Part shown: in pieces, positions 25,986 through 56,813 of the stretch
Layout: each line of letters starts with the position of its first letter
Numbering within the stretch: the stretch's first letter is position 1
Assembly (NCBI GenBank): GCA_013329055.1
Contig: DUKY01000020.1
Span: 54,989 to 118,988, forward strand
Reading direction: 5' to 3'
From: Nanobdellota archaeon
GTDB taxonomy: Archaea; Nanobdellota; Nanobdellia; Pacearchaeales; GW2011-AR1
Length of the DNA: 64,000 nucleotides
Position numbers and translations under genes: made by a program
The notes under the pieces: generated by a model
Told to the model about the DNA's origin: nothing
Database searches by the model: none
Seen by the model: the letters and a program-made list of their open reading frames with translations, nothing else

Positions 25986-26326
25986 ATGGCATTCAAGGAA
26001 CCAAGGGGTTCACATTCCATGTGGCATTACAGGAGGCTCCGAAAGTTTACACGAGTTTTCATGATAGCCCTTGATACGAGTGTGGACTTGAGTAGAAAGT
26101 TTACACGAGTTCTCATGATAGCCCCTGATACGAGTGGGTTTGAGTTTAGAGATGCCCCCGTTCCGCAAAGTTTGAGGACGAAGTTATTGAACAGCGACAA
26201 ACATTTTAAATGAATAACGACTTTTCAATGACTGAGCCAGCTTAAAAACTTCAAAAGTATCGTCTTTTGAATGTCCCAGAAAATTTAATTCTACAAATTT
26301 TCTGAGGAAACCAGCGGGTGTCTTTT
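25986..26326 (-). repeat. family-C ~340-bp structured repeat, copy 1 (reverse complement of copy 2 at 44669-45010)
   Basis: The reverse complement begins aaaagacacccgctggtttcctcagaaaattt..., directly abutting the stop of the 26325..26510 gene. About 170 nt are near-identical to copy 2, followed by two tandem units built on gtgtaaactttctactcaagtccacac. Confidence 0.85.
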
Positions 26327-31685: not shown

Positions 31686-32050
31686 GAAATTGTTTTTAAG
31701 ATTTAACTAAAAAGAACCCTCTGGTTCTTTTTGAATCTCCTCAAAATATTGAAAGGTGGCATCTCTTTGAGCCTTTGTGGATGCCACGTGGAAATCCCTG
31801 AATTTCTTTGTTTGAATCTTAATGCCCCACATTCTCGTAACCTCGCACGAAACTTTGTGGGTTATCGTTTCTACCACGAAGTTACTCGCCCCAAAATTAT
31901 TAAAATAATAATTTGCCTTTAGGTCGTTAAAATCTTATTGTTGGTATGCTTTTTTTTATAGTTTCTATTATGAATTTAATTGCCTTTTGTACAATTATTA
32001 AAGTATAATTTGTATTAAGCAATTAAAATCTATTGTTAGTATGCTTTTTT
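31686..32050. repeat. composite family-A repeat block with an inserted hairpin module and two tandem right arms
   Basis: The left arm is gaaattgtttttaagatttaac. The inserted modules are aaaaagaaccctctggttcttttt and gtggcatc...gatgccac. An intact cgcacgaaactttgtgg...ccacgaagtt module is present, and two ...attgttggtatgctttttt arms follow. Confidence 0.8.
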
Positions 32051-32103
32051 ATTAATAATTTTATCACCAAAAAGATAATAAATACCTATTTTTTGATAAT
32101 TTT

Positions 32104-32973
32104 ATGAAACGTCGGATTGTTTTGATCGGGGTTCCTAGTAATCTTGGTGTTGATATTTCCGGTAGTAATTTTGGTCCTGATAAAATAAGGCAATTTTTAA
32201 TTCCTGAATTAGAAAAAAATAATATTAATTTTGTTGATTTAGGTAATCTTTTTGTTCCTGAAAAAAATTTTTTAGGTGATTCTAATGAAAAGTTAAAAAA
32301 TTTAATTTCTATACAAAGAGTTTATCGGAATTTTTCAAGATTGCCTGAAAATTTTTTTGAAAAACCTAATTTCCCGATAATTCTTGGCGGGGACCATAGT
32401 ATTATTTTTGGGCATATTAAAGAATTAACTAAGAAAAAAAATGCGGGGTTAATTTGGTTAGATGCTCATGGTGATTTTAATGATGAATCTACAACTGTTA
32501 CCGGAAATATTCATGGTATGGTTTTAGGTGCTATTGCCGGAAATTCCTTAAAAAAATATTTTGATGTTGATAAGTCTTTGATTAAAGAAAAAAATATTTC
32601 AATTTTAGGGGCAAGAGATTTAGATTTGAATGAAATTTTTTTATTGAAAAATTCAGATGTTATGGTTATTTCTACTGAAAAATTAAAAGAAAATAAAATG
32701 GAGTATATTTCAAAAGCTATTAATCGTGCTAATGATGAAACGAGTGGTTATCATGTTAGTTTTGATCTTGATCTTGTTGATCCTCTTGATGCTCCGGGTG
32801 TTTCTGTTCCTGTGAATGAAGGTATTTCTAAGGAAGAATTTTCAAATATTGTTGATTTAATTGATACTGATAAATTATTGTCTGTTGATTTTGTTGAGTT
32901 AAATCCTTTAAATGATATTGATGATAAGACTGCTAAGTTGATTGTGGATTCTATTTTGAAGTTGTGTAAGTGA
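32104..32973 (+). CDS. arginase-family ureohydrolase (arginase/agmatinase)
   Basis: The Mn-binding motifs are GGDHSI, WLDAHGDFND, TGNIHGM and SFDLDLVDP. Confidence 0.82.
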   Translation: MKRRIVLIGVPSNLGVDISGSNFGPDKIRQFLIPELEKNNINFVDLGNLFVPEKNFLGDSNEKLKNLISIQRVYRNFSRLPENFFEKPNFPIILGGDHSIIFGHIKELTKKKNAGLIWLDAHGDFNDESTTVTGNIHGMVLGAIAGNSLKKYFDVDKSLIKEKNISILGARDLDLNEIFLLKNSDVMVISTEKLKENKMEYISKAINRANDETSGYHVSFDLDLVDPLDAPGVSVPVNEGISKEEFSNIVDLIDTDKLLSVDFVELNPLNDIDDKTAKLIVDSILKLCK

Positions 32974-33303
32974 ATTTTGTTTCTTTTTGGCTAAAATCTA
33001 CAATTTGATTTCTTATGTAGCGCCCACTACATGGCGAAATAAAATTATAACATTTTATCTCAAAAATAATTCAAAATTTTTTGGGGTTTTGAAATGTCTT
33101 CTTTACTAACTTTTTATATTTTATTTTTGAGGAGAATTTTTTTGGGGGTGGTCGGGGGTTTAAGGCTTCCCAGTAATTGAGTTGAAAATCGGGATTAAGA
33201 GAAGTTGTTTAAGTTCGGAGTGTAGCGTGGCTTGAGTTTAAAAAAGGGTGATTATATCAAGTTCTTTGTTTCTTTTTAGATACATATGTATCTATATTGA
33301 TAC

Positions 33304-33319
33304 GAGGGGAACACTCACG
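33304..33319. repeat. left copy of the inverted repeat bracketing the higher-GC island
   Basis: gaggggaacactcacg here; the reverse complement of 35460-35474 is gggggcacactcacg. Confidence 0.5.
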
Positions 33320-33385
33320 TAAATAAGTGAAGTATGAGCTCTTAACTTTTGTTGAATTCAATAAACATCATGTTGTTAAAAAGCA

Positions 33386-34597
33386 TTACTTCATATGTGC
33401 CAAAATATCGCCAAAGATTAAATTCTGCTGTGCTCTATATTTCCTCACTGCAAGGCCGATGGTCTGCTCGTTCGAGAAGGCTTTATTCATCCTTTTTCCC
33501 TCACTGTTAGTGCCGAATCCGGCATAGTATGCCCATGTTCCGGTGTCCATGAACGCCTGCGGCCAACAGCAGTAATCGGTCCTGTTCATTGGCGATTTGA
33601 TTATCAAGTCCCCGCAAGAAAAGCCTGACATGAACAGTGCGGGTGCACCATTTTCTCTTGCGAACTCAAGGTACTCGTCAATAGTAGACCAGTAAGGCTG
33701 AGTATGTTTTGCTGATAGGAACGCTGGACCGCCAAGCCTTTCAAGCTGTTGTTTACCAATGATGCTCAGGGACATATCTCTTCCGGTGGTATCATCCCCG
33801 TGGATGCTGAAGTGCATAGCGAGGTGCTTCTTTTTCAGCTTATCGGTAACCTTCTGGTATTCGGTGTTATAGACATATTCCTGCGGCATGTCATAACCGA
33901 GACCCTCCTTCGGGTCCGCAAGACCTATGTACTTTCCATTTTCACTTCCCTCGTAGTCAGTTAAGTGAAGGGCAGTTCTGGGATACTTCTTCATGTAACT
34001 TTCAAAGTTGTTGTGGTAGTCTGTGTAGGTCTCCATCGTCTTGAGGATGAAGCTAACCTTTTCAGGATCAGTATAGGCGAATGGTGGCATTATTGATGAG
34101 ATTGCTATGTCACTGCACCTGCAACAGCCACAGTCCTCGTCCACACACTCCATTTTCCAGTATATTGCCGCAAGGCTTTCCCAGTTTGTTGCATTGACCC
34201 CGCTTGCTGTCGGCAGGTCATCTCCTATCAGGATTATATAGGCAACATTGTCATCCATGTATAAATCATCAACGAATTTGTCTAATTCATCTATTGTCTT
34301 CCCTGGAAACTTTTTCAGCCCTGCATTCTCGATGTTTAGGTCCTTCTTTACAGATGTGAAATATTTCGAAACCGATGAAGCGACATCATCAGTATCATAA
34401 ATTCCGCCTTTTGAAACAATAATTGTCACTCTATCCTTTTCCACATTCACAGAACAATAGCAGGGATGCTCTGGAGATACAATGGAAGTAATCCAACATA
34501 CAGTGAAGCTTGCTTGTGAGAAAACCAGCATTATGGTTATAACGATGATTATGGCAACCCAAAATTTTTTTCTTTTGAGCAATTCTGGGATTTTCAT
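33386..34597 (-). CDS. membrane-anchored clan-CD (caspase/gingipain-fold)-like cysteine peptidase
   Basis: It has an N-terminal TM. A candidate His-Cys dyad follows hydrophobic strands: LAMHFSIHGDD and ALFMSGFSCGDL, about 60 residues apart. The fold assignment was made by eye. Confidence 0.45.
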   Translation of the reverse strand: MKIPELLKRKKFWVAIIIVITIMLVFSQASFTVCWITSIVSPEHPCYCSVNVEKDRVTIIVSKGGIYDTDDVASSVSKYFTSVKKDLNIENAGLKKFPGKTIDELDKFVDDLYMDDNVAYIILIGDDLPTASGVNATNWESLAAIYWKMECVDEDCGCCRCSDIAISSIMPPFAYTDPEKVSFILKTMETYTDYHNNFESYMKKYPRTALHLTDYEGSENGKYIGLADPKEGLGYDMPQEYVYNTEYQKVTDKLKKKHLAMHFSIHGDDTTGRDMSLSIIGKQQLERLGGPAFLSAKHTQPYWSTIDEYLEFARENGAPALFMSGFSCGDLIIKSPMNRTDYCCWPQAFMDTGTWAYYAGFGTNSEGKRMNKAFSNEQTIGLAVRKYRAQQNLIFGDILAHMK

Positions 34598-35397
34598 GTT
34601 TTAGTCCCTATTTTCATATCTGCGACAGTATCACGACATGTTTCCTTAATTTTAGGGATTTCAATCATTTCGCAGATAGATTCATCTCCTTTCATTGAGG
34701 CAACTTCTGAATAGCAAGATGCCCGAATTTCTATATCTAGAATTTCTCTGCATATCTGAGGGTCAAGCTTGTTCCATGCAATATATCTATAACAGTGGTC
34801 CTTGTAAGATTCAATGGAAATTTTGTTGCATATTGAAGTGTCGTTTTCTATATTTGCGATCTTGCTATAGCACCAGTCTCTCGGATAGACATTTTCGATT
34901 TCATTACAGATGAACATATGCTTGCGTGAAATGTTAATAGGGAATTTTATCTCGCCTAAGACAATGTCTAAGAAGTATACCTCTATGCTGTGACCAACCA
35001 TACCCTTAGTTTCTGAGTCATATTTTTCATACTGGAATTTTGCCCGTAATTCTGGATTTCGTAACTTTTCATAGACTGTAGGATCCTCGGGAGCTGCTGC
35101 AATCACCGCTTTCATACATTCACTGATGCGGTAATCACTAGGCATTCCGCTTACGCAAAGAACAGGATCATGTCTTGCTACAGCAATTTCTTGCTGACAG
35201 GATGCTCTTTCATAGGGATTTTGAATCTGCATGCATGCAGGATTCACAGTTTCCCAAGCGGACTTGGAACAGGTTATTGATGTGGAACATTGGATACGGT
35301 AAATCAATGTCGGCATATTATAAATAAATATAATAATAACAACCAGAATTATTAAAAAAATAATCCAAAAGATATTTTTTGGATATTTATTTGTCAT
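34594..35397 (-). CDS. membrane-anchored cysteine-rich repeat protein
   Basis: It has an N-terminal TM (IFWIIFLIILVVIIIFIY). C-x(n)-C spacings repeat (DPVLCV...ISECM, DTSICNKI...DHCYRYIA, DPQICREI...ASCYSEVA, DESICEMI...ETCRD). It overlaps the downstream gene by 4 nt. Confidence 0.55.
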   Translation of the reverse strand: MTNKYPKNIFWIIFLIILVVIIIFIYNMPTLIYRIQCSTSITCSKSAWETVNPACMQIQNPYERASCQQEIAVARHDPVLCVSGMPSDYRISECMKAVIAAAPEDPTVYEKLRNPELRAKFQYEKYDSETKGMVGHSIEVYFLDIVLGEIKFPINISRKHMFICNEIENVYPRDWCYSKIANIENDTSICNKISIESYKDHCYRYIAWNKLDPQICREILDIEIRASCYSEVASMKGDESICEMIEIPKIKETCRDTVADMKIGTKT

Positions 35398-35459
35398 TAT
35401 CCAGATTACAGTTTAACAAGTTTATTAATATTACTATCCCTTCTTGAGTGTAGTTCAAT

Positions 35460-35474
35460 CGTGAGTGTGCCCCC
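35460..35474. repeat. right copy of the inverted repeat bracketing the higher-GC island
   Basis: cgtgagtgtgccccc; see the feature at 33304-33319. Confidence 0.5.
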
Positions 35475-35535
35475 ATAGTCATAATTGCGTATAACATCAA
35501 TTAAATAAACAAAATTATCCAGAAATATTTTAATT

Positions 35536-36120
35536 TTAAATCCCTCGATTATCTAATTCATTGTTTACAACTGCTACAACTTGTGAAGCAAAATACATTT
35601 TGGGTCCAATTGAAATGGGTGTTAAAGATTTTTTTAATCTCTTTAATTCTTTTCTTGGGAATCCTTCATGGTCTCCGATAATGAATGCACATTCTTTTTG
35701 TATTTTTGCTTCTCTTAAAGATTCTCCGCCTTTTTCTAAGATAAAACATTCAACATCTTTATCCAATAATTCTTCTATAACGTGTAAGAAACTTTTTTTT
35801 TCTATGAAACATCCGGGCAAAACTTCTGTTTTTTCTCCGGCTTTATATTTGTATAATATTCTTTTTATAAGATTTCCGACATCTTTTTTTGATATTTCAA
35901 GTTCTGGTGTTACTCTAATTTCTATATGTTTTGGTGGGTCTGGCATTCCATAAAATATAAAGTGGAAGTTTACATCCTCTCTAAATCCGTGTGACAAGAA
36001 TACTCCTTGTATAAATGAGTGAATTGCAATATCCATCCTTCCTGCTTTCATTAAATTTCCATCAGAAAGTGCTTTTCCGCTTGTAACTGCACTATTTGAA
36101 AAATATATTATATGACGCAT
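35536..36120 (-). CDS. trmY: tRNA (pseudouridine54-N1)-methyltransferase TrmY (SPOUT, DUF358)
   Basis: MRHIIYFSN...GRMDIAIHSFIQGVFLSHGFREDVNFHFIFYGMPDPPKHIEI matches the TrmY family pattern. Confidence 0.78.
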   Translation of the reverse strand: MRHIIYFSNSAVTSGKALSDGNLMKAGRMDIAIHSFIQGVFLSHGFREDVNFHFIFYGMPDPPKHIEIRVTPELEISKKDVGNLIKRILYKYKAGEKTEVLPGCFIEKKSFLHVIEELLDKDVECFILEKGGESLREAKIQKECAFIIGDHEGFPRKELKRLKKSLTPISIGPKMYFASQVVAVVNNELDNRGI

Positions 36121-44668: not shown

Positions 44669-45010
44669 TAAAAGACACCCGCTGGTTTCCTCAGAAAATT
44701 TGAAAAATGAAATTTTCTGGGACTATCAAAAGACGATACTTTTGAAGTTTTTGAGCTGGCTCAGTCATTGAAAAGTCGTTATTCATTTAAAATGTTTGTC
44801 GCTGTTCAATAACTTCGTCCTCAAACTTTGCGGAGCGGTGGCATCTTTACTCAAGCCCACACTTGCGACTTTTAAAATTTGCTTTCAGAATATTATGCAA
44901 GTGTAAACTTTCTACTCAAGTCCACACTTACAGCTTTTATCTTTACCTTCGGGATTAATGTAAGTGTAAACTTTCGACCTCCTTGTAATGCCACATGAAG
45001 TATTGAATGG
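44669..45010 (+). repeat. family-C ~340-bp structured repeat, copy 2
   Basis: It starts immediately after the ccdA stop codon (taataaaagacacccgctgg...). It contains the hairpins cagaaaattt...aaattttctg and tcaaaag-acgata-cttttga, and two units cacacttgc...gcaagtgt and cacacttac...gtaagtgt. The closing stem gtggcat...atgccac is present. Confidence 0.85.
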
Positions 45011-45042: not shown

Positions 45043-45249
45043 TTAAAATGAAATTTTATTATTATTAAATTCATATCTTGTTCGATTTCTGCAAAAATTG
45101 CAACAATTAGAATATTCTAAACAAATACTTTCGCATTCTCTGTCTAGTTCTCTGTTTGTGCAAAGAAAAATATCTTGTTTTTCTGCCTGATCATATCTAA
45201 TAAAGACTTCTTTATTAGGGTGATATTGTCTGCATCTTAATTCTGACAT
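45043..45249 (-). CDS. small cysteine-rich hypothetical protein
   Basis: 68 aa with 9 Cys (CESICLEYSNCCNFC). Confidence 0.4.
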   Translation of the reverse strand: MSELRCRQYHPNKEVFIRYDQAEKQDIFLCTNRELDRECESICLEYSNCCNFCRNRTRYEFNNNKISF

Positions 45250-45331
45250 TTTTATAATAAAATTAATCTATTTATATATCTTATTCTATTTTTGGATAAG
45301 TATTTAAATGTTGTTTTTTTATGTTTTTATT

Positions 45332-45652
45332 ATGAAAGAATACAAAGTAACTGGTGTAATTGACTTGAATAAACCTTCTGAACAAATTTTTTTTGGGGTT
45401 GTAAAAGGTCTTGAAGGGAAATTTAATGGGAAAATTAGTTTTAGTAATTGTTCTGGGTGTTCTGGTTGTAATGGTGAATCTGAAAAATTGGAAATGGCTG
45501 TATATAGTAAATCATTAAGTATTGTTTATACTTCTCCTGATGCTTTTTTAGGTCATTTTGAAAAATTTGACCGAGAAGAAGGAAAACACGGCATTGTTGG
45601 TGAGTATTCCAATAAAAGGATGTATTTGAATGTTGCGGAATTAGTTAAATAA
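45332..45652 (+). CDS. hypothetical protein (paralogue of 45684..46028)
   Basis: It shares the EGKF(N/S)GKI motif with the next gene and has a CSGCSGC stretch. I prefer the ATG at 45332 because gtatttaaat is centred about 27 nt upstream. Confidence 0.45.
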   Translation: MKEYKVTGVIDLNKPSEQIFFGVVKGLEGKFNGKISFSNCSGCSGCNGESEKLEMAVYSKSLSIVYTSPDAFLGHFEKFDREEGKHGIVGEYSNKRMYLNVAELVK

Positions 45653-45683: not shown

Positions 45684-46028
45684 ATGGTTATATGTAGATT
45701 GACAAAAGTTTTATTGGAAAATGGAAGACCAATGGATAAAGATTTTTCTGAAATTTTTGAAGTTAGTGACGAAGGTAAATTTTCAGGAAAAATTTTTAAG
45801 TATCAACCTTTTTGCAAAGGTGAAATTAGGGGAAAATTTGATTTAACTAAAGGAATTTTGTCTTTGAATTATCTTTTTAATGGTACAAGCATTGGACAAA
45901 TTTATAGCTTAGAGCGACAATTTTGTTTACCTTGTAATCGTGAGACTATTTTTGGTCATTATTTTGATAAAAAGAGAGAAGTTTTATTCCAAATTGAAGA
46001 TTGTGATAAATGTGACAAGTGTGATTAA
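45684..46028 (+). CDS. hypothetical protein, Cys-rich C-terminus
   Basis: The motifs are DEGKFSGKI and CDKCDKCD. A TATA-like aatatttaaata is centred about 27 nt upstream. Confidence 0.45.
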   Translation: MVICRLTKVLLENGRPMDKDFSEIFEVSDEGKFSGKIFKYQPFCKGEIRGKFDLTKGILSLNYLFNGTSIGQIYSLERQFCLPCNRETIFGHYFDKKREVLFQIEDCDKCDKCD

Positions 46029-46046
46029 GTATTAAAAATTCTATTT

Positions 46047-46322
46047 ACTTGATTTCTAAAAACTCTACTCGTTTCCAGAGCAGTTTATTAATCTTTTACA
46101 TTACTTCTGTTCTAAAAACTCTACTTGTTCCAGAGCAGTTTATGAATTTATTAATTTTTTATATTACTCCTGCTCTAAAAACTCTACTCGTTTTCAGAAC
46201 AGTTTTATTTTATTTTTTAATTTTTTAATTTTTTAAATTACTCCTGCTCTAAAAACTCTACTCGTTTCCAGAGCAGTTTATGAATTTATTAATTTTTTAA
46301 ATTACTCCTGCTCTAAAAACTC
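46047..46322. repeat. tandem array (4 full and 1 partial units of about 55-75 bp), each unit carrying the hairpin ctgctct-N19-agagcag
   Basis: The unit tactcctgctctaaaaactctactcgtttccagagcagttta is repeated. The linkers are short, AT-rich and partly identical to one another. The last partial unit merges with the 3' end of the Dph2 fragment. Confidence 0.85.
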
Positions 46323-46609
46323 GGCATCATCTCTGAATGTCCAAATTGAATTGTTAAATCAATTTGTTTTTGAATTTTTCCTGGTAAAATTGGTGTGTCG
46401 CAAGCTCCAAAACAGCTTTCAATCCAAATTAAAAATTCCGCATCTGTTTTTTCTTCTAAATAGTCAACTATTGCTGTTGCATATTGTTTTAGTCCATCCG
46501 GAAATTGGAGCAAAATTAATTTTGCATTTGATTTTTTTATTTGTTCAATTATTTTGTTTAATTCTAAGTCATATTGTTTTTCTATATCTGATATTGTATA
46601 TTTTTGCAT
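46313..46609 (-). pseudogene. dph2: Dph2 (diphthamide synthesis radical-SAM enzyme), N-terminal ~98 aa only; truncated or split
   Basis: AKLILLQFPDGLKQYATAIVDYLEE...CFGACD...IQFGHSEM matches the first third of archaeal Dph2 (about 340 aa). The ORF stops right after the GHS motif, at the tandem repeat. Confidence 0.65.
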
Positions 46610-46868: not shown

Positions 46869-47387
46869 TTAACCCTTACTTTTTCTGTTTGGTTTGTTTA
46901 TCTCGAACCATTTGCTGATTTCTTGAATTATTTCTGATGTTATTCTTGGGTCTTGAAGTTCGTAAAATTCTTGAGGAGTTATTATTTTATAATATCCTTT
47001 TCCATATGTATTAACTTCTTTAAGATTGCCATATTGAAATTTTTCCCTTGTTGTAATACAAGTGTCTTCTCTACATCTTCCCCAATTATTATTATTTTCT
47101 GTTGGAAAATTGTCTAGTTGCCATTTCCAATTTCCACATTCATAAATTTGCATTAATGTGTCATAACTTTCCTGAGTTGGAGTATTAATTGCTGTTTTTT
47201 CTAATTCTTTTAAAATTAAAATTGGTCTGCCATTTTCGTTTCTTTCTAAAAGAGGTTTTATTTGGTTTGAACCCATATATTGATTTAGGTCTCCAAATAA
47301 ATTCATTCTTTGAATTTTTGTTTCTTCTAATTTTTTCATCATCTTTTCATGTGGAAGAATTATCATTGATTTGTTGAGGGTTATCAT
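46869..47387 (-). CDS. MITLNKSM-family orphan protein, paralogue 1 of 6
   Basis: 172 aa. It shares the N-terminus MITLNKSMIILPHEKMMKKLEE, the core YDTLMQIYECGNWKW, and the C-terminus ITPQEFYELQDPRITSEIIQEISKWFEINKPNRKSKG. Confidence 0.7.
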   Translation of the reverse strand: MITLNKSMIILPHEKMMKKLEETKIQRMNLFGDLNQYMGSNQIKPLLERNENGRPILILKELEKTAINTPTQESYDTLMQIYECGNWKWQLDNFPTENNNNWGRCREDTCITTREKFQYGNLKEVNTYGKGYYKIITPQEFYELQDPRITSEIIQEISKWFEINKPNRKSKG

Positions 47388-47388
47388 T

Positions 47389-47901
47389 TTATCCTTTACT
47401 TTTTCTGTTTGGTTTGTTTATCTCGAACCATTTGCTGATTTCTTGAATTATTTCTGATGTTATTCTTGGGTCTTGAAGTTCATAAAACTCTTGAGGAGTT
47501 ATTATTTTATAATTTCCGTATTCGTTAACTTCTTTAAGATCTCCATATTGAAATTTATTATATGCTTGAACACAAGTTATTTTTCCATAGCATTCCCAAG
47601 CATTAAATTCTGTTGGTAAAATTATGTCTTCAACCCATTTTCTATCACCACATTCGTAAATTTGCATTAATGTGTCATAATTTTCTTGAGTGGGAGTATG
47701 AATTACTGTCCTTTCTAATTCTTTTAATTCTAAAATTGGTCTTCCATTTTCATCTTTTGTAAGATTAGAATTTGTTGAGTCAGATCCCATATATTGATTA
47801 AGGTTTCCAAATAAATTAATTCTTTTAATTCTTGTATCTTCTAATTTTTTCATCATCTTTTCATGTGGAAGAATTATCATTGATTTGTTTAATGTTATCA
47901 T
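47389..47901 (-). CDS. MITLNKSM-family orphan protein, paralogue 2 of 6
   Basis: 170 aa. Its stop lies 1 nt before the start of paralogue 1. An ~85-nt stretch at the 3' end is identical to paralogue 1. Confidence 0.7.
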   Translation of the reverse strand: MITLNKSMIILPHEKMMKKLEDTRIKRINLFGNLNQYMGSDSTNSNLTKDENGRPILELKELERTVIHTPTQENYDTLMQIYECGDRKWVEDIILPTEFNAWECYGKITCVQAYNKFQYGDLKEVNEYGNYKIITPQEFYELQDPRITSEIIQEISKWFEINKPNRKSKG

Positions 47902-48021
47902 TTTAATTTTATCTTTAATCTGAAGTTTATAAACTTTTGTTTTAGATGTAACTATCTAGTGGTAAACTATTTTATTCTAGAATTATTTTTATCTTTGGAT
48001 TATTAAATAAGAAATTTAGAA

Positions 48022-49641
48022 TTATCTGCTTTTAATAAATTCTTTTAGTAAATTAACAATGTTGTTTTTTTTATTTGGTAAAAAGGAGATTGATCCGGCA
48101 TTTTTATGTCCTCCTCCTTCAACGAATGTTTCCGGGAGTTTTTTATCAATGAATTTAATTAATTCATGAACAGAAAAATTAGCTTCGTCTGTTGCTCTCA
48201 TAGTAATTGCAGTATTCATAATTCCTGCAGTTACAACAGCTGTTTCGCCGGTTCTTTTTTGGTATTCATCATGTACTAATCCAGTTGCTCTGCCTGGTTT
48301 AGGGAAAAAACCAAATCCGGGAAAAGTTTCTTCAATTTCAATACTTTGTAAAATAACATTACCCATTTTTTCTTGTTTTGCATTACTCATTCCAATTGCT
48401 AAACCTTTTTTATCCATCTTTTTAATATACGGTGCCATTAATTGGACTAATTCTTTTTGTTTGTTTCTTGGTTCTCCAAATAAAACTTCTATGTATTCCC
48501 GAACTTCCATAAATCGAATTTTTGAAGAAACATATTCTATAACTAAAGCAATATCTGAAAGCAGTTCTTTTGTGTATCCTTCTTTTTCTGCAATTTTTAA
48601 ATAATCATTCATTGTTTTAGGATTACTTAATTCAATTCTGTCTGCAAAACCAGACATTGCCGGGATTTGATTTATATTTTTTACATTTGGATTAATGAAT
48701 CTTGCAAGTTCAGAACAAAGCATTCCTGCAGAAAAATGTGAACCGTCTTCTCCGACTAAAAAAGGATTTATATGCGTTAAAACTTCTCTTGAAATAACAT
48801 CCTGATCAAATTTGTGATGATCCACAATTATAAAATCTGATCCGTGAACTTTTCCTTGTTGGATTGCCATTAAATCTTCCTGTGTTGAACCGTTATCTGC
48901 AATAATTATCAGTGGCATTTTATTTGAAAATCTTGCAACATTTCTTAATGATTGTGCAGTGTCTCTTATCGAGTCATCAATTTCATAAAATGGTGCAGCA
49001 CATGGGGCTCTTGTGAAAAACTCCCAACGGGATTTTTCAGAACCATGCTGTTCTTCTATTAATGGCAAGATTGCTCTTTCTAAAGAAAATCCTGAACTAT
49101 ATCCATCTGTATCATTATGATGTCTTACGATTATTGGTCTATCTTGTATTATCGCGAGTTTAATTTCTGTTGCAGCTTTAATAAATGAATCTTTAAGTTT
49201 ATTTAGAATTGGACTTTCTACAAGAAATTTTGGCGGAATAACTTTGGCTCTTTCTCTTTCAATGTTTTCAATAGATTTGATAAAATCTTTTTCTTCAGAA
49301 GGATTTAATTTATTAATTTTTATTATATTTCCTTCTGTTTCTCCCTGAAATTCTTCGATTTTAATAAATGTTTTAATAGAATCTCCTTCTGTTAATTCAG
49401 GATATGCTCGTTGTCCTGCACCGACAAAACCTTTTAAAGAAAGGCTTCCTGTTCCGTCAGAAATAACGAATACAGTTGGACCTCCTGTTTGTGCAATACG
49501 ATTTATTTTTCCGAATATAAATACAGTATTTTTTGAATTTTTTTTAATATCTTTTATAAATGATTTTTCCAGTTTTTCTTCTCTTTCTTGTGTTTTTACT
49601 GGTCTTTTAAAATCTTTATTCTTTTTAGAAAAATTATTCAT
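48022..49641 (-). CDS. recJ: archaeal RecJ/Cdc45-like DHH phosphoesterase (GAN-like) with an N-terminal OB-fold region
   Basis: The DHH motifs are VRHHNDTDGYSSG, IIADNGS and IVDHHKF. The DHHA1 motif is GGGHKNAGS. Confidence 0.82.
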   Translation of the reverse strand: MNNFSKKNKDFKRPVKTQEREEKLEKSFIKDIKKNSKNTVFIFGKINRIAQTGGPTVFVISDGTGSLSLKGFVGAGQRAYPELTEGDSIKTFIKIEEFQGETEGNIIKINKLNPSEEKDFIKSIENIERERAKVIPPKFLVESPILNKLKDSFIKAATEIKLAIIQDRPIIVRHHNDTDGYSSGFSLERAILPLIEEQHGSEKSRWEFFTRAPCAAPFYEIDDSIRDTAQSLRNVARFSNKMPLIIIADNGSTQEDLMAIQQGKVHGSDFIIVDHHKFDQDVISREVLTHINPFLVGEDGSHFSAGMLCSELARFINPNVKNINQIPAMSGFADRIELSNPKTMNDYLKIAEKEGYTKELLSDIALVIEYVSSKIRFMEVREYIEVLFGEPRNKQKELVQLMAPYIKKMDKKGLAIGMSNAKQEKMGNVILQSIEIEETFPGFGFFPKPGRATGLVHDEYQKRTGETAVVTAGIMNTAITMRATDEANFSVHELIKFIDKKLPETFVEGGGHKNAGSISFLPNKKNNIVNLLKEFIKSR

Positions 49642-49685
49642 TTATAGTTGAATCTTTACTTGGTTATAAAATTTGCGGTTGTTGA

Positions 49686-49818
49686 GGCTCTGTCCAGAAT
49701 TAAGTTTTTTTGATTTTAGAATTCCCACTTCTAGTTCAAGCTAAAGCTTGAAGACCCGCCCTTAATGAATATCTGAATTGCCAAAAGTTAGCTAAAATCA
49801 AAAACTTTGGACAGAGCC
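49686..49818. repeat. family-B MITE-like element overlapping the 3' end of the glycosyltransferase gene
   Basis: The arms are ggctctgtccagaattaagtttttttgattttag and ctaaaatcaaaaactttggacagagcc. The core is cccacttctagttcaagctaaagcttgaagacccgccc. Confidence 0.85.
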
Positions 49819-50573
49819 GGTTGTTGATTAAAGAACTTTTTTATTCTTAAATCATAAGTAATTTCAAGGTATATTCTTGTTATAATCTCTTTTATAGATA
49901 GTTTAATTGGTTTTTGAGTCTTATTATTCCTTATTCTATATTGTAAATTTACATTTAAATCCGGACAAAATTTTAATTTTCCGATTTGTTCAAGTTTTTT
50001 GGATAGAAAAAAATCATCTTTTGCATGAGTAATATTTTCCTGTTTTCTTAATTTTTCAAGACCTTCATATCCTTTAACTGATATAAATGCAGATCTTCGA
50101 AATGCACTATTTCCTCCTCCTAGGCAATATAAGTTACTTAATAATTTTAAATAATAAATTGAGATATAAAAAAAATTAAAAATTTTTCCTTTATTTCTGA
50201 ATCTTGATTTTCCTCCAATTCCAACAATTTTTTGGTCCTTAAAATTTTTAATTATCACAGAAACCCAATTTTTATCTGCAAATGCATCAGCGTCGAGTGA
50301 GCCGATTATTGTTCCTTTTGATTTTTTTATCCCGAAATCTCTTGCATTTGTTTGGTTTCCTTTTGGATAGTAAAATAATTTAAAATTTATCTCTTTTTCT
50401 TTGAATTTTTTTTCGAATTTTTTTGCGATTTCTTTAGTATTGTCTGTACTTCCATTATCGACTATTATAATTTCATATGGTTTTTTTGTTTGATTCAGGA
50501 GAGAGGTTAGGCAATTTTTGATATTTTGCTTTTCATTTAATGTGGGAATAATTATGCTTAATTTTTCTTCCAT
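49788..50573 (-). CDS. family-2 glycosyltransferase
   Basis: The motifs are LSIIIPTLNE, EIIIVDNGSTDNT and GSLDADAF. The last ~10 codons (..PALSKVFDFS*) are encoded by the family-B repeat. Confidence 0.8.
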   Translation of the reverse strand: MEEKLSIIIPTLNEKQNIKNCLTSLLNQTKKPYEIIIVDNGSTDNTKEIAKKFEKKFKEKEINFKLFYYPKGNQTNARDFGIKKSKGTIIGSLDADAFADKNWVSVIIKNFKDQKIVGIGGKSRFRNKGKIFNFFYISIYYLKLLSNLYCLGGGNSAFRRSAFISVKGYEGLEKLRKQENITHAKDDFFLSKKLEQIGKLKFCPDLNVNLQYRIRNNKTQKPIKLSIKEIITRIYLEITYDLRIKKFFNQQPALSKVFDFS

Positions 50574-50657
50574 CTTTAAATATTAGGCAATTTAATTTAA
50601 AAATGATTGCAAATTAATTTAAGTTATATTTTTAAATTAAATTATCTTTTTTTATTC

Positions 50658-51251
50658 ATGTTTTTAGAAAGTATTTTACCTTTTATTGGTCAATATGGAA
50701 AGAGTATTTCTTTTCTTGGAGGTTTTATAACCGGAGAAAGTGTAATAATTACTCTTGCTTTTTTATCTGCTCAGGGTTTTTTGCCTTTATGGTATGTGCT
50801 TGTTTTTTGTACTATTGGTATGTATTTATCTGATTTTATTCCTTTTACAATTGGAAGATTTAAATTTTTTAGAAATTTTTTAGAAAAAGAAAAATATGTC
50901 AGGCAAGTTGAAAAAATTGAATATCATTTGCAAAAATATACAAAAAATAATCTTTTTTTAATTTTATTTTATACTAAAATTATTTATGGAGCGAGTATTC
51001 CTGCATTGGTTTATCTTGGTGCAAAAAAAACATCTTATTCTAAATTTTCGTATTATAATTTATTTGTTGAGTTAATCTTTGTTCCTTTTGTTGTTTTAAT
51101 TGGTTGGCTTACCGGTAAAGGTTTTAGTTTTCTTGCTAAGATTTTTGAAAATCTAAGAATTGCTATTTTGTTCTTAATACTTGTTATTATTATTTTATAC
51201 TTTATTAGAAAATGGGAAAGTCAAAGATTGATAAAAAAGCAAAAACTATAA
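50658..51251 (+). CDS. DedA/SNARE-associated-like membrane protein
   Basis: It is a multi-TM protein with GGFITGESVIITLAFLSAQG. I prefer the ATG at 50658 to the TTG at 50607. Confidence 0.5.
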   Translation: MFLESILPFIGQYGKSISFLGGFITGESVIITLAFLSAQGFLPLWYVLVFCTIGMYLSDFIPFTIGRFKFFRNFLEKEKYVRQVEKIEYHLQKYTKNNLFLILFYTKIIYGASIPALVYLGAKKTSYSKFSYYNLFVELIFVPFVVLIGWLTGKGFSFLAKIFENLRIAILFLILVIIILYFIRKWESQRLIKKQKL

Positions 51252-51991
51252 ACCTAAAAGGAAATTCAAAAAAAGAATTTTTTCTTTTGCATGGTTTTAC
51301 AGGAAGTCCTACTGATTTTAATCATCTTGGAGAATATCTTAATAAGCGATTTGATGCAAATGTAAGAATTATAAGATTAAAAGGTCATGGGGAAAAAATA
51401 GAAAATCTTAGTAATTTTGAATATAATGATCTTTTTTTGCAGGCTGAGAATGAATTAAAAAAAGACTTAAAAAAAGGAAGAGAAATAATTGTTGGAGGAA
51501 TTAGTCTAGGTAGTTTTATTGCATTACAGCTTTCAACAAAATATCCTGTTAAAGGGATTATAAATATTTCAATTCCTTATAAATATAAATTCTTAATTTC
51601 AATTGTTGCTTTTTTTGAACCTTTTATTAAAAAAAAGCATTGGAAAAAGGTAATGCCTAAATATCAAAAAGATTTGCGAAAAGATGCTTTTTATTATGAT
51701 GCCAGTCTTTTTGGTTTTAGATATATCAAAGAGGGTAAATCTGAATTAGATAAAATTTTGAATAAGGTTAATGCTCCTTGTTTAATCATTCATGTTGCTA
51801 AAGAAAAAATTTTTCATCCTGATAGTGCAAAAATTATTCTAAATAAAATTAATTCTAAAATTGTTGAGTTTGATTTATTTAAATCTCCTGAGGGTTCAAG
51901 TCATAATCCTTTTTATTCTAAAAATCATAGTCAATTATACGATATTATTGGTAATTTTGTTGAAAAAAATAATTTATTTAGTAAATCTTAA
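51212..51991 (+). CDS. alpha/beta-hydrolase carboxylesterase
   Basis: FFLLHGFTGSPTDF and the nucleophile elbow GGISLGS are present, with a late His in SSHNPF. Confidence 0.72.
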   Translation: MGKSKIDKKAKTINLKGNSKKEFFLLHGFTGSPTDFNHLGEYLNKRFDANVRIIRLKGHGEKIENLSNFEYNDLFLQAENELKKDLKKGREIIVGGISLGSFIALQLSTKYPVKGIINISIPYKYKFLISIVAFFEPFIKKKHWKKVMPKYQKDLRKDAFYYDASLFGFRYIKEGKSELDKILNKVNAPCLIIHVAKEKIFHPDSAKIILNKINSKIVEFDLFKSPEGSSHNPFYSKNHSQLYDIIGNFVEKNNLFSKS

Positions 51992-52503
51992 TATTTAATT
52001 CCTTTGCTTCTTCTATCTGGTTTATTTGTTTCAAACCATTTATTTATTTCTTCTATCGTCATATCTCTTATTTGCGGGTCTTGAATATCATAAAATTCTT
52101 GGGGCGTTCTGATCAAAGATTTTTCTACAAATCTTTGTATTTCCCCATATCTAAATCCTTCAAATGCACCAATACATGTATTTTCTTTATATGTTGTCCA
52201 AGCATTATATCTTGTGGGAATATCTCCATCCTGCCATTCCCAATTACCACATTCGTAAATTTGCATTAAGATATCATATTCATATTGTGTGAAAACATTA
52301 ATATATGTATCTTGTAATGATTTTAAATTTAAAATTGGCCTTCCCTCTTCATCTCTTCTTAAATCTGACTTTTTTAAAGATTTTTTTCCCATGAATCCAT
52401 CCATTTCTCTAAGCTTAAATGGTCCATTTTTCTTTCTTTCTTCTGCTTTCTTAATAATTTCATCATGCGGTAGAATTATCATTGATTTGTTTAATGTTAT
52501 CAT
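51988..52503 (-). CDS. MITLNKSM-family orphan protein, paralogue 3 of 6 (most divergent N-terminal half)
   Basis: 171 aa with MITLNKSMIILPHDE..., YDILMQIYECGNWEW and INKWFETNKPDRRSKG. Its 3' end overlaps the convergent esterase gene by 4 nt. Confidence 0.65.
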   Translation of the reverse strand: MITLNKSMIILPHDEIIKKAEERKKNGPFKLREMDGFMGKKSLKKSDLRRDEEGRPILNLKSLQDTYINVFTQYEYDILMQIYECGNWEWQDGDIPTRYNAWTTYKENTCIGAFEGFRYGEIQRFVEKSLIRTPQEFYDIQDPQIRDMTIEEINKWFETNKPDRRSKGIKY

Positions 52504-52513
52504 TTTTTATTAA

Positions 52514-52990
52514 TTAGAAATCGAATTTAAACCATTGATTTATTTCTTCTATCATTGAATTTGTAACACCTTCAATATCATAAAACTCTTTTGATTGTAT
52601 TATTTTGTAATTTATACTTTCATAAAATTCTATACTTGAAAATCCTACTTTGCCCTGTACACTTATGCATGTTTTTTTTCCATACATCTCCCAAAAGCTA
52701 CGTGTTGTTGGTTTATTTTCACTTTCCCATTTCCAATCTGCACATTCACAAACTCTCATTAAATCCCAATATTCTTTTTTGCTTATTGTTTGCACTACTG
52801 TTTTATCTAAAGGGGTTAAATATAAACTTGGTCTTCCATTTTTATCTCTCTTAAAATTAGCATTTATATTTGATCCCATATATTTATTAAGGTCTTTACA
52901 TAAAAGCATTCTTTGAACTCTTGTTTGTTCTAATTTTTTTATCATTTCTTCATGAGGGATAATTATCATTGATTTGTTTAATGTTATCAT
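52514..52990 (-). CDS. MITLNKSM-family orphan protein, paralogue 4 of 6 (lacks the basic C-terminal tail)
   Basis: 158 aa with MITLNKSMIIIPHEE..., YWDLMRVCECADWKW and EEINQWFKFDF. Confidence 0.65.
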   Translation of the reverse strand: MITLNKSMIIIPHEEMIKKLEQTRVQRMLLCKDLNKYMGSNINANFKRDKNGRPSLYLTPLDKTVVQTISKKEYWDLMRVCECADWKWESENKPTTRSFWEMYGKKTCISVQGKVGFSSIEFYESINYKIIQSKEFYDIEGVTNSMIEEINQWFKFDF

Positions 52991-52991
52991 T

Positions 52992-53495
52992 TTATCCTTT
53001 GCTTTTTCTGTTTGGTTTATTTATTTCAAATAATTGATTTATCTCTTTAATCATTTTTTGCGTTATTTCTGGTTTTTGAAATTCGCAAAATTCTTGCAAA
53101 GTTAATATCTTCCAATTCTTTTGAATATAAAATTCTTTGTTTCCACATCTAAATCCGTTTTTTATTGGTATGCATGTTTTTTGTTTATAACCTTTCCAAA
53201 AATTATGTTCTGTTGGGTTATTATCTGGCCATTCCCATTTTCCAATTTCATAGATTTGCATTAATGTGTCATAATTTTCCTGAGTTGGAATATGGACTGC
53301 TGTATTTTCTAATTCTGTTAAAATTAAAGTTGGTCTTCCATATTCTCCTTTTGCAAGATTAGAATTTGTTGAATTATATCCCATATATTGATTCAGGTTT
53401 TTGAATAAATGCATTCTTTGTATTCTTGTTTCTTCTAATTTTTTTATCATTTCTTCTTGTGGAAGAATTGTCATTGATTTGTTTAATGTGATCAT
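52992..53495 (-). CDS. MITLNKSM-family orphan protein, paralogue 5 of 6
   Basis: 167 aa. Here the core Cys is replaced (QIYEIGKWEW). The C-terminus is EINKPNRKSKG. Confidence 0.65.
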   Translation of the reverse strand: MITLNKSMTILPQEEMIKKLEETRIQRMHLFKNLNQYMGYNSTNSNLAKGEYGRPTLILTELENTAVHIPTQENYDTLMQIYEIGKWEWPDNNPTEHNFWKGYKQKTCIPIKNGFRCGNKEFYIQKNWKILTLQEFCEFQKPEITQKMIKEINQLFEINKPNRKSKG

Positions 53496-53496
53496 T

Positions 53497-54009
53497 TTAT
53501 CCTTTGCTTTCTCTATTTGGTTTGTTTATCTCGAACCATTCATTTATCTCTTGGATGATTTCTTGTGTTATTTCTGGTTCTTGAAGTTCGTAAAATTCTT
53601 TAGGGGTTATTATTTTCAAATTAAAATTTTGTGCATGTTTAAATGCAAAACTATATATAAAATTTTTTTTTGCGGTTATATTCATGTTGTTTTCTTGATT
53701 GTTTTTCCAAGCATTAAATTCTGTAGGTAATTTTTCAGAATACCATTTCCAGCTTCCACATTCATAAAGTTGCATTAGTGTGTCATAAATTTTTTGATTT
53801 TGTATTTGTATGACCATTCCATCTAATTGTTTTAAATCTAAAATTGGTTTTCCATTTTCATTTCTTTTTAAATTATAATTTATTTGATTGGTTCCAATAT
53901 ATTGGTTAAGGTCTTTACATAGAAGCATTCTTTGTATTCTTGTTTGTTTTAATTTTTCTATCATTTCATCATGCGGTAGAATTATCATTGATTTGTTTAA
54001 TGTTATCAT
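53497..54009 (-). CDS. MITLNKSM-family orphan protein, paralogue 6 of 6
   Basis: 170 aa with YDTLMQLYECGSWKW and EWFEINKPNRESKG. Its stop lies 1 nt before the start of paralogue 5. Confidence 0.65.
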   Translation of the reverse strand: MITLNKSMIILPHDEMIEKLKQTRIQRMLLCKDLNQYIGTNQINYNLKRNENGKPILDLKQLDGMVIQIQNQKIYDTLMQLYECGSWKWYSEKLPTEFNAWKNNQENNMNITAKKNFIYSFAFKHAQNFNLKIITPKEFYELQEPEITQEIIQEINEWFEINKPNRESKG

Positions 54010-54124
54010 TGGTATTATTTTTAGATTTAAAATTTATAAACTTTTGGTTCAATGTTACTATTTAGTGACAAATGATAATTCTTAAAATAGTTTAAAAAAT
54101 ATTTTTATATTTGAAGAATTACTT

Positions 54125-54871
54125 TTAGCGTAAATAAAATCTGGAATCTAATATTTCCTGTAAAGAATATTTTCTTGTATTTAATGTGCTATCTCTTGTT
54201 GGTAATATTCCCATAAGACGACTACCTCCATCATCAAGATCGTCTGCTCCGTTGACATATGATTCATTGCCGAGTCTTCCAAGATACCATGCTCTTATTT
54301 CCGGAGTTTTTCCTTTGCAAGAACCGAGAATAATGCTCATTGGTGTTTCATGACCGTATTTTTTTTCACTTTCATCGTAAATAAAATCTGTATAATCATT
54401 GAGCAGGGCTTGATCTCTTGCTAAAATTCTCCAAAGAGGGTCACTTTTAACATCTTCTTTTGATTTAAAATCTATTGTTCTTTCAAGTTTGTGATTTTTA
54501 AATTCAATAACATTTGATTGTTTTTTTAATTGTTCATAAATTGCAAATGCTTCATCTTTATTTTCACTTAATAATAATGCACCATTGTATAATTTTTTAG
54601 TATCTTGGGAGATTTTTATTAACATTTCTGAATCTAAATCAATTAAGATATTTTGTGTTTCCGGATGATAGATAACTGCATCGCAGGTGTCATAGTTACT
54701 TAGCCAAGCATTTTTTATAGCTTCCGGACCATTTTTATAGTTGAGTCTGATTTGCATGAATTGTGAAATATTTCCCGGGATTCTTCCTTCTGCTCTTAGC
54801 TTAGGCATTGTTTTTATGTATTTGCCTGAAAATTCTTTATATGTTTCTGGTGTTTCATTAAGTTTTGCCAT
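54125..54871 (-). CDS. hypothetical protein heading the second paralogue array
   Basis: 248-aa ORF with no motif recognised. It lies 115 nt upstream of paralogue 6 on the same strand. Confidence 0.55.
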   Translation of the reverse strand: MAKLNETPETYKEFSGKYIKTMPKLRAEGRIPGNISQFMQIRLNYKNGPEAIKNAWLSNYDTCDAVIYHPETQNILIDLDSEMLIKISQDTKKLYNGALLLSENKDEAFAIYEQLKKQSNVIEFKNHKLERTIDFKSKEDVKSDPLWRILARDQALLNDYTDFIYDESEKKYGHETPMSIILGSCKGKTPEIRAWYLGRLGNESYVNGADDLDDGGSRLMGILPTRDSTLNTRKYSLQEILDSRFYLR

Positions 54872-56753: not shown

Positions 56754-56777
56754 AAAAAGGAAACCCTTGGTTCCCTC
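56754..56777 (+). terminator. A-run followed by the ggaaacc/ggttcc hairpin immediately after the infB stop codon (terminator-like; same module that begins the repeat families)
   Basis: The sequence is tga-aaaaaaggaaacccttggttccct. The same module occurs at 383, 4613, 31709 and 44669, and as the reverse complement at 26000 and 26311. Confidence 0.35.
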
Positions 56778-56813
56778 AGAAAATCTTATAAGTAATTATT
56801 TGAATTCTTTTTT

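Follow-up and report, generated by a model that had tools for sequence, protein, structure and literature searches.

Why would an archaeon with a tiny genome maintain six genes for a single family of small proteins? The genomes of DPANN (Diapherotrites, Parvarchaeota, Aenigmarchaeota, Nanoarchaeota and Nanohaloarchaeota) archaea are small, yet a 64,000-nucleotide (nt) stretch from a Nanobdellota archaeon (GenBank assembly GCA_013329055.1, contig DUKY01000020.1, positions 54,989 to 118,988 of the forward strand; hereafter the window) spends six open reading frames (ORFs) on one family that is undescribed in databases, and its closest relative spends eight. An initial annotation, read from the DNA letters, had taken the six genes for an orphan family involved in biological conflict, possibly an immunity array beside a polymorphic toxin. 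The analysis described here shows that they belong to an undescribed DPANN-wide domain family, which is shared with phages and linked to variable proteins of the type associated with diversity-generating retroelements (DGRs). This family is what is new here; small diversified proteins are already known to expand in tandem in particular lineages, and no new mechanism is demonstrated.

The six ORFs are intact and encode proteins of 158–172 residues, and a local profile scan found exactly six copies of the family in the window. They form two arrays on the minus strand, one of four genes (array B) and one of two (array A), as the initial annotation had described. Listed from the upstream end, the arrays and the regions preceding them are as follows.

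54010–54085, minus strand: region upstream of array B, with an exact AAAAGTTTATAAA box at 54033–54045 that ends 23 nt before the ATG
53497–54009, minus strand: W6, first gene of array B, 170 residues, with leader, core and KPNRESKG tail; family profile match at 2e-42
52992–53495, minus strand: W5, second gene of array B, 167 residues, starting 1 nt past the W6 stop codon
52514–52990, minus strand: W4, third gene of array B, 158 residues
51988–52503, minus strand: W3, last gene of array B, 171 residues, with the most divergent leader
47902–47975, minus strand: region upstream of array A, with an exact AAAAGTTTATAAA box at 47926–47938 that ends 24 nt before the ATG
47389–47901, minus strand: W2, first gene of array A, 170 residues, an ORF with a family profile match
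46869–47387, minus strand: W1, second gene of array A, 172 residues, 76% identical to W2

Within the arrays the intergenic gaps are 1, 10, 1 and 1 nt, the typical junction being TAA-A-ATG, and the 3′ end of W3 overlaps the end of a convergent esterase gene by 4 nt. The 4086 nt between the arrays hold genes for a RecJ/GAN-like protein (DHH, OB-fold and DHHA1 matches, all at or just under the Pfam cut-offs), a GT2 glycosyltransferase, a VTT/DedA-like membrane protein whose Pfam score is just under the cut-off, and the esterase, an alpha/beta hydrolase. Both the close packing and the content of this block agree with what had been annotated. When the heads of the arrays are aligned, the approximately 70 nt preceding the first gene are alike in both, and the exact AAAAGTTTATAAA box occurs within the 64 kb only at these two positions. 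The 30-nt 5′ end of the genes is found six times at up to 3 mismatches (chance expectation 0), and four of the six copies are identical over their first 30 nt. The box is TATA-like, and we infer that it is a duplicated archaeal promoter composed of a transcription factor B recognition element and a TATA element (BRE/TATA). Such promoter-like regions would drive two near-leaderless polycistronic units, W6-W5-W4-W3 and W2-W1.

The possibility that the region is an integrated element or genomic island was considered and rejected, as no tRNA, compositional shift or integrase was seen. The G+C content of the window is 24–36% throughout, with no compositional break at the arrays. A direct repeat of approximately 58 nt that brackets the region was rejected as an att pair, since it proved to belong to a motif that is dispersed over the window in 4 copies. 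The repeats of the region are only the paralogues themselves, and a scan of 45–55 kb against Rfam gave only a chance microRNA match. Over the entire 64-kb window ARAGORN reports zero tRNA genes.

Alignment of the six proteins gives 32 invariant columns and a mean column identity of 66%. It bears out the features noted in the initial annotation: MITLNKSM at the start is invariant, the copies have the Y(D/W)xLM..(Y/C)E block in common, and five of them carry a KPNRKSKG-type tail; the copy that lacks the basic tail is W4, which ends in WFKFDF. The annotation had also described some 60 strongly differing residues between the conserved ends. A divergent middle is indeed present, but its strongly variable part is shorter, approximately 45 residues (alignment columns 93–137), with a second and less variable stretch at columns 21–60. 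Each protein is composed of four modules. A basic N-terminal leader of approximately 45 residues, which is lineage-specific and predicted at low confidence to be helical, precedes a conserved alpha/beta core of approximately 110 residues. Within the core lies the paralogue-specific block of approximately 45 residues, which is nearly unalignable between paralogues (nucleotide identity approximately 50–60%) and 87–96% identical at the nucleotide level between orthologues. The fourth module is the C-terminal KP(N/D)RxSKG peptide, present in five of the six copies and recurring in distant family members. An additional C-terminal helical part, KIITPQEFY...EIN.WF, is conserved in the window copies. 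The isoelectric point (pI) of the leader is 9–10 and that of the acidic to neutral core 4.4–6.5; the proteins are hydrophilic (grand average of hydropathy −0.5 to −0.9), and no transmembrane segment or signal peptide is apparent from their sequences.

To determine how widely these modules occur we used an exhaustive profile search covering 1.84 billion cluster representatives. At E ≤ 1e-3 the family comprises 882 cluster representatives, of which 383 reach ≤ 1e-10 and 49 reach ≤ 1e-30, and the term “orphan” can therefore be dropped. All named homologues are from DPANN archaea (Woesearchaeota, Pacearchaeota, Nanoarchaeota and “Nanoarchaeia”). Most members are stand-alone proteins of 105–190 residues that align only to profile positions ~50–168. 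The conserved unit is consequently the core of approximately 110 residues, and MITLNKSM, previously read as the invariant N-terminus of a conserved domain, is a lineage-specific leader. A [KH]PxRxSK motif at the C-terminus was found in 44 of 153 sampled members, 29 of which do not have the MITLNKS start; two of these 29 are clade members with a cut N-terminus. Neither the six copies nor the distant members gave anything above threshold in Pfam, NCBIfam or PADLOC scans, in agreement with the earlier statement that no known domain could be recognised. Core, leader and KPNRxSKG tail thus define a new domain family that is open to modelling and annotation.

Relatives of the core are also found in phages. 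All six copies give weak but consistent PHROG matches over residues ~65–120, the best match of W4 being phrog_9112 at 3.4e-5. When the members of a 65-member alignment were compared with PHROG, phrog_9112 was matched by 19 of the 65 (best 1.2e-7) and phrog_4897 by 14. The relatives found by tblastn are in temperate Firmicutes phages, and hhalign aligned the core with the N-termini of Enterococcus phage EFC-1 gp11 (97.5%, E 6e-12) and Listeria phage LP-101 gp67 (96.7%, E 4e-10), in a region that spans the (H)T.TQ..Y..LM...E..G..W....PT..N.W..Y...T block. By these profile comparisons the core is a homologue of a phage early-protein N-terminal domain. The part concerned is the unannotated N-terminal 60–80 residues of EFC-1 gp11 and LP-101 gp67; the C-terminal half of the former has a weak DUF1642 match and that of the latter a clear DUF3310 match, and both genes are within early or replication modules. 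T7 gp1.7 also contains DUF3310, as does the lactococcal protein SaV, an early toxic product and the trigger of AbiV, but these facts concern the fusion partner and not the core domain of the family.

The phage early proteins (phrog_9112, and the N-terminus in phrog_4897) therefore share a homologous core with the window copies and differ from them in organisation. In the phages the core makes up the N-terminal half of an early protein that is virus-borne and has two domains. The copies in the window are cellular, each has a single domain and their chromosomal neighbourhood is conserved; they have their own leader, the extra C-terminal helical part, the basic tail and a tandem arrangement. A distant subfamily of 235 residues (P0200) lies on an IMG/VR contig with genes for a single-stranded DNA-binding protein (SSB), a methyltransferase and Phage_VG64, together with faint PD-(D/E)XK and weak NUMOD4 matches. 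The DPANN-type version was not found in the IMG/VR viral collection with two pattern sets. Among multidomain relatives, P0143 carries an AT-hook-like KKRGRPKK motif outside the core, and others have C-terminal parts that, judged by reading the sequences, are SH3/KOW-like.

An AlphaFold2 (AF2) model of W2 has a mean predicted local distance difference test score (pLDDT) of 77.8; from residue 51 on, the means of 10-residue blocks are mostly 84–95, with a lowest value of 78. The model consists of a mixed alpha/beta domain that follows a low-confidence helix at residues 13–37. Foldseek found no match to it in the Protein Data Bank (PDB) at E ≤ 0.001 (best E 6.1), and a PDB sequence-profile search with the 65-member alignment gave no match either, so that the fold cannot be assigned by either route. 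The sole structural neighbours of the W2 model are uncharacterised phage proteins in BFVD, the best at 4.6e-4.

The number of copies differs between related genomes, as the initial annotation had expected. In the local profile scan there are 6 in the window, 8 (5 + 3) in a syntenic close relative (L001), 5 (2 + 3) in a Pacearchaeote (L009), 2 in L002, where they are dispersed, and one each in at least four other lineages. The four genes of array B are positional orthologues of genes in L001 (W6 of R1, W5 of R2, W4 of R3 and W3 of R4), where there is an extra fifth copy. W6 and R1 have a nucleotide identity of 92–99% over the segments from 46 to the end and 89% in the leader, and R3 is tail-less like W4. 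Array A is different. Segment-wise comparison of its two copies with the three of L001 shows a mosaic in which R7 has a W1-like front joined to the variable block of W2, R8 has a W3-like tail, and the variable blocks of R6 and R8 are novel; W1 has no one-to-one orthologue. These comparisons support recombination within array A. In a sister strain (L024, contig Ga0209518_1033028, 1595–2115) the counterpart of W2 is otherwise 100% identical to 47389–47901 and carries a 10-bp deletion, AATAAATTTC, within the variable block. The deletion is flanked by AATA microhomology and causes a frameshift; as it is seen in one metagenome contig, the choice lies between a natural pseudogene and an error of assembly.

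To compare divergence between paralogues with that between orthologues we determined the ratio of nonsynonymous to synonymous differences per site (pN/pS). Between paralogues this is 0.95 in alignment columns 93–135 and 0.26–0.33 at the two ends. In the tail the synonymous sites are saturated (pS 0.88, pN 0.18), and at codons ~46–60 pS is unusually low (0.21–0.27), which is consistent with gene conversion or a nucleotide-level constraint in the 5′ half. Pooling the four orthologous pairs gives a pN/pS of 0.26 for the whole length and of 0.21 for the variable block. Values for the flanking genes are 0.05 for aIF5B, 0.08 for DedA, 0.13 for RecJ, 0.22 for GT2, 0.32 for the esterase and 0.36 for the 248-residue gene upstream of array B. 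The orthologues fall inside this range, and the paralogue-specific blocks are therefore old and under active maintenance, with no race going on at present. The description “rapidly diverging” thus does not suit array B, while the recombining array A does change. The initial annotation had named two findings that would together speak against a role in conflict, uniform copy number and purifying selection over the whole length in related genomes; one half of this pair, purifying selection, is seen in array B, and copy number varies (6, 8, 5, 2 or 1).

The gene directly upstream of array B gives the first indication of context.

54125–54871, minus strand: AvpA-like protein, 248 residues, with a C-type-lectin fold of the DGR-variable-protein type; the equivalent of the variable region (VR) is at residues ~195–217

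AvpA is a DGR variable protein of Nanoarchaeota, with the structure 5IOO (Handa et al. 2016, PMC5006420). The AF2 model of the 248-residue protein (pLDDT 75.6, predicted template modelling score 0.80) has one significant PDB match, 5ioo_A, with E 5.8e-8, probability 1.00 and template modelling scores of 0.55/0.63; a sequence-only PDB search did not detect this likeness. Its DAVIYHP and RLMGI segments resemble two of the three published AvpA motifs, GxxVVVYAH and RFxGV. There are 26 homologues, those named being from Nanoarchaeia/Nanoarchaeota, and across 24 of them residues ~195–217 show hypervariable positions interleaved with invariant ones (RAW.V..L...S.A.G...LD...GRLVGIAPEA), with an entropy peak at 205–216. 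We looked for the remaining parts of a retroelement. No second copy of the VR-equivalent DNA that could serve as a template repeat (TR) is present in the 64 kb, no reverse transcriptase (RT) is matched by RVT among the larger ORFs of the window, and the VR-equivalent differs from that of L001 by only two residues. An active DGR in the window was accordingly rejected, and the protein is best described as a variable protein of the DGR type that shows no visible sign of diversification here. The same structural match disposes of the suggestion that a toxin-like gene lies upstream of the arrays, since the protein that would have been the toxin has the fold of AvpA. We also tested whether the AvpA-like gene and the family generally co-occur, which does not hold: in three other genomes no family member was found within 8 kb of its homologues, and the adjacency is therefore specific to this lineage.

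A second and more direct link is found in a Nanoarchaeial genome (L008, JAQUOT010000001.1, a 536-kb contig), in which the single family member is part of an 11-gene same-strand run that has no Pfam matches. Seven proteins of the run share an N-terminal leader, M.xIIGDK..S.FDPDLAREINEK, which is 93% identical over residues 1–29 between the family member and a 262-residue neighbour, but they have differing C-terminal domains and only one of these is the family core. At least four of the other leader-bearing proteins have a common 3′ segment of 90–110 nt with 76–85% nucleotide identity, in proteins that are ~26% identical elsewhere, and the differences in these segments fall at codon positions 1 and 2, with position 3 fixed as C or T. 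Differences of this kind correspond to the AAY-to-NNY pattern of DGR variable regions. The 16.5 kb examined contain neither a TR nor an RT. The run (coordinates 481–9273) has the appearance of a DGR-type locus in which several targets share one handle. At the level of sequence, this leader swap and the distant members that lack MITLNKSM show that the family is modular. The leader-bearing L008 proteins and the family of the 248-residue protein were rejected as relatives by sequence (hhalign probability 1%), and neither set matches the PDB by sequence. In the window MITLNKSM occurs on the six copies only, and in metagenomes it is attached only to the family core, apart from one chance match (L023).

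The L008 run also encodes a 464-residue AAA+ protein (weak Mg-chelatase/AAA_7 match), a 568-residue protein with HExxH and DxSGS motifs, and a 47-residue ORF. In L009 the arrays are interleaved with an AAA_5 ATPase, for which AAA_5 and AAA_lid_2 score above the cut-offs, and with a 564-residue HExxH/VWA_2-like protein whose VWA_2 score is under the Pfam cut-off. The two ATPase/VWA pairs were considered as homologues of each other, but local jackhmmer searches found nothing. These loci call to mind the MoxR-vWA (VMAP) ternary conflict systems (Kaur et al. 2020, PMC7159879), bacterial examples of which have DGR-diversified sensors and common effector-associated adaptor domains (Dore et al. 2024, PMC10907252). 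The likeness lies in the interleaving of the Pacearchaeote arrays with the ATPase and VWA-like protein and, in L008, in one short N-terminal module placed on several C-terminal domains near the AAA+ and HExxH/DxSGS proteins. The resemblance is architectural only. No peptidase, TIR or other effector was matched among the neighbours scanned. The window arrays differ in that no ATPase or VWA gene is nearby: local jackhmmer found no relatives of the L008 pair among the window ORFs, and Pfam scans of the larger ORFs show none.

What else accompanies the family was assessed by clustering all ORFs within 5 kb of family members from 12 independent lineages. Beyond the family itself, the recurring neighbours are aIF5B-type GTPases (4 lineages), a short Dph2-like protein (4), a DsbD-like membrane protein (3) and RecJ/GAN (2), which adjoins a family member both in the window and in L002. 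Across these 12 lineages no toxin, ATPase or VWA family recurs. The gene has therefore long had its place in the chromosomes of this archaeal class and was amplified in situ in some lineages. In the window the flanking genes are those for the AvpA-like protein, RecJ/GAN, GT2, the DedA/VTT-like protein, the esterase and the short Dph2-like protein, and of the 20 larger ORFs scanned 16 match housekeeping or ordinary cellular families and 4 match nothing. The short Dph2-like neighbours have 87–100 residues and align to the first ~60 positions of Pfam Diphthamide_syn. The window copy (46313–46609, minus strand, 98 residues) scores 45 bits against a cut-off of 33.2 over those positions only, and the space downstream of it is too short to hold the remainder of the enzyme. 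Across at least 4 DPANN lineages the protein is 50–63% identical and usually near aIF5B, and the Pacearchaeota locus has two copies (65% identical), one on either side of the block with the arrays. The Dph2-like protein seems to be a conserved mini-protein that arose from the N-terminal part of Dph2.

What, then, could six such proteins be for? Architecture and context lead us to favour, tentatively and with somewhat less than even confidence, a co-expressed panel of binding or adaptor proteins that forms a hard-wired recognition repertoire, probably directed at viruses or at the host. The conserved scaffold would present the paralogue-specific block as the specificity surface of a cytoplasmic binding or adaptor module, while the common leader and the C-terminal peptide would dock every copy to the same partner or partners. 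The tight TAA-A-ATG packing would allow the whole panel to be produced together, and the array would be a hard-wired repertoire of fixed specificities, its likely arena being virus–host or symbiont–host recognition and not toxin immunity. The strongest argument is from L008, where the core takes the same place on a common handle as the DGR-diversified ligand-binding domains, and the position of array B directly downstream of a DGR-type variable protein points the same way. In phages the core is fused to differing C-terminal domains, as would be expected of a reusable binding module. That specificities are maintained is suggested by the pN/pS of the variable block, which is 0.21 between orthologues compared with 0.95 between paralogues; co-expression is suggested by the duplicated upstream region, the TATA-like box and the 1–10 nt gaps; and the copy numbers of 1–8, the mosaic array A and the frameshifted W2 of the sister strain are the turnover that a repertoire would be expected to show. 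Taken together, the size and DPANN-wide spread of the family, the core it shares with phages and its setting with DGR-type variable proteins in two lineages offer a concrete and testable way into how these episymbionts recognise hosts or viruses.

Several points weigh against a binding panel. The DGR-type link is seen in just 2 of the 12 sampled lineages, and adjacency to an AvpA-like gene could be coincidence because DGR targets are common in DPANN archaea; the other AvpA-like loci without a family neighbour, the lack of an RT or TR in the window and the two-residue difference of the VR-equivalent from L001 count in the same direction. The leader is confined to the six copies in the window, so that no hub protein has been identified. 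In the W2 model the variable block holds predicted secondary-structure elements and would therefore be a subdomain, not a simple loop. The strongest counter-argument is that the recurrent aIF5B, Dph2-like, DsbD-like and RecJ/GAN neighbours fit a housekeeping role equally well.

The panel should not be equated with the DGR variable proteins themselves. They are alike as candidate DPANN recognition proteins, through the AvpA-like gene next to array B and through the L008 family member that shares its leader with DGR-type variable proteins. The six proteins differ in that they have no C-type-lectin fold, since W2 found no PDB match in the same Foldseek library in which the 248-residue neighbour matched 5IOO; a VR/TR pair is lacking, the variable block stays stable from strain to strain, and their diversity is that of gene duplication and not of mutagenic retrohoming. 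A bolder version of the binding panel, which we consider rather unlikely, would make the core a previously unrecognised ligand-binding scaffold interchangeable, on common N-terminal handles, with DGR C-type-lectin domains, the arrays a germline receptor repertoire for host or virus recognition, and the phage domain the targeting half of early proteins for host takeover. It is similarly doubtful that diversity would there be produced by duplication and recombination beside, or in place of, the somatic-like DGR route.

The recurrent housekeeping neighbours are the starting point for a different explanation, in which the family goes back to an ancestral single-copy gene, a housekeeping accessory factor of the adjacent information-processing genes (aIF5B, aIF2-gamma/S6e, the short Dph2-like protein and RecJ/GAN) and the paralogues are hetero-oligomer subunits or sub-functionalised isoforms that dock by their basic tail to a component of the ribosome or replisome. 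We regard this as improbable, though it should be taken seriously: the sole neighbours that recur across lineages are housekeeping genes, RecJ/GAN adjoins the family in two lineages, orthologues are under purifying selection along their whole length, the tight co-directional packing suggests stoichiometric co-expression, and the basic C-terminal peptide is widely conserved. A factor of this kind sits less easily with a copy number of 1 to 8 across related genomes, the apparent inactivation of one copy in the sister strain, a highly divergent paralogue-specific subdomain, homologues in phage early modules and named members that are all DPANN, and within a single archaeal class synteny may be due to common descent rather than function. 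Should the binding repertoire prove wrong, the linkage to aIF5B, RecJ/GAN and the mini Dph2-like protein would point to an accessory factor of archaeal information processing. The phage homologues themselves suggest that the copies could be domesticated viral early genes acting in anti-virus conflict as decoys, superinfection-exclusion factors or sensors, with each paralogue tuned to a virus. The homology of the core to phage early N-terminal domains, the viral-contig neighbours of P0200 (SSB, methyltransferase, faint PD-(D/E)XK and weak NUMOD4), the presence of the partner domain DUF3310 in SaV and T7 gp1.7, the AAA_5 and VWA, PemK or integrase-like genes near some loci, the variable copy number and the mosaic array A all agree with such an origin. 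This is nevertheless unlikely, given that the two pattern sets found no DPANN-type version among the viruses, that the chromosomal position is conserved between lineages, that PADLOC gives no match, that orthologues carry no sign of positive selection and that no effector is encoded alongside in the window.

The charge distribution, with a basic leader and basic tail flanking an acidic core, would also suit small nucleic-acid-associated regulators whose ends bind DNA or RNA, whose core modulates and whose paralogues differ in their targets. The AT-hook-like motif of P0143, the SH3/KOW-like C-termini of other relatives and the replication and early modules of the phage homologues could be read in this sense, but no helix-turn-helix, ribbon-helix-helix, zinc-ribbon or other known nucleic-acid-binding fold was detected, the conserved core positions are mostly hydrophobic and structural, and the AT-hook is in a single distant relative outside the core, all of which makes regulators an improbable choice, more so than the viral origin. 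Least probable by our estimate is a polyimmunity locus, with six immunity proteins directed at polymorphic toxins from competitors or from nearby genes. Polyimmunity arrays reportedly have tandem divergent layouts of this sort, and the likeness extends to small paralogues, strain-to-strain copy-number differences and recombination between copies; the positive support for the idea is this tandem layout. The window arrays differ from such loci at most other points. There is no linked toxin, as no toxin-like gene is present among the large ORFs of the window or the array flanks, none recurs in the 12 lineages and the upstream protein is AvpA-like; no known immunity domain (SUKH, Imm) is matched in Pfam or NCBIfam; the phage version is the N-terminal part of multidomain early proteins; the shared leader and C-terminal peptide are not features of immunity proteins; and every copy is under purifying selection between strains. 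What survives of the conflict interpretation, besides the tandem layout, the variable copy number and the recombining array A, is a flavour of diversification and recognition that comes from the AvpA-like neighbour, whereas its immunity and toxin part does not.

Several other features of the window were observed. Close to array A, five tandem copies of a unit spaced at 56–74 nt (46020–46343) lie between the convergent genes 45684–46028 (plus strand) and 46313–46609 (minus strand). Each unit contains a hairpin, CTGCTCTGGAAACGAGTAGAG, followed by a minus-strand T-run, without an Rfam match, and the “spacers” are mutually similar and so not CRISPR-like; the repeats may be a terminator stack or a small repeat element. 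The neighbouring ORFs include two adjacent ones of 114 residues (45308–45652 and 45684–46028, plus strand), which are cysteine-rich (CSGCSGC, and CDKCDKCD at the C-terminus) and conserved at 91–92% in L001, and a cysteine-rich ORF of 68 residues (45043–45249, minus strand); none of the three matches Pfam. A dispersed 22-nt motif, CCCGCTGGTTTCCTCAGAAAAT, occurs at 388–409 (plus), 26297–26318 (minus), 44678–44699 (plus) and 56763–56784 (plus), that is 4 times at up to 2 mismatches (chance expectation 0). Two of the copies directly follow the DsbD-like gene and aIF5B, just past their stop codons, and here the similarity is longer, ~58 nt; the motif may be a 3′-end or regulatory element. At 12373–19671 (minus strand) there is a cluster of PrkA, SpoVR, DUF444 (YeaH-like) and a second PrkA, so that PrkA is duplicated in this small DPANN genome; the PrkA/SpoVR/DUF444 stress-response module is known chiefly from bacteria. 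Finally, the G+C content of 32001–36000 is 0.34–0.36, compared with 0.24–0.32 in the other 2-kb bins. This stretch contains two co-directional ORFs without a Pfam match, at 33386–34597 (403 residues) and 34594–35397 (267 residues), and may be foreign DNA.

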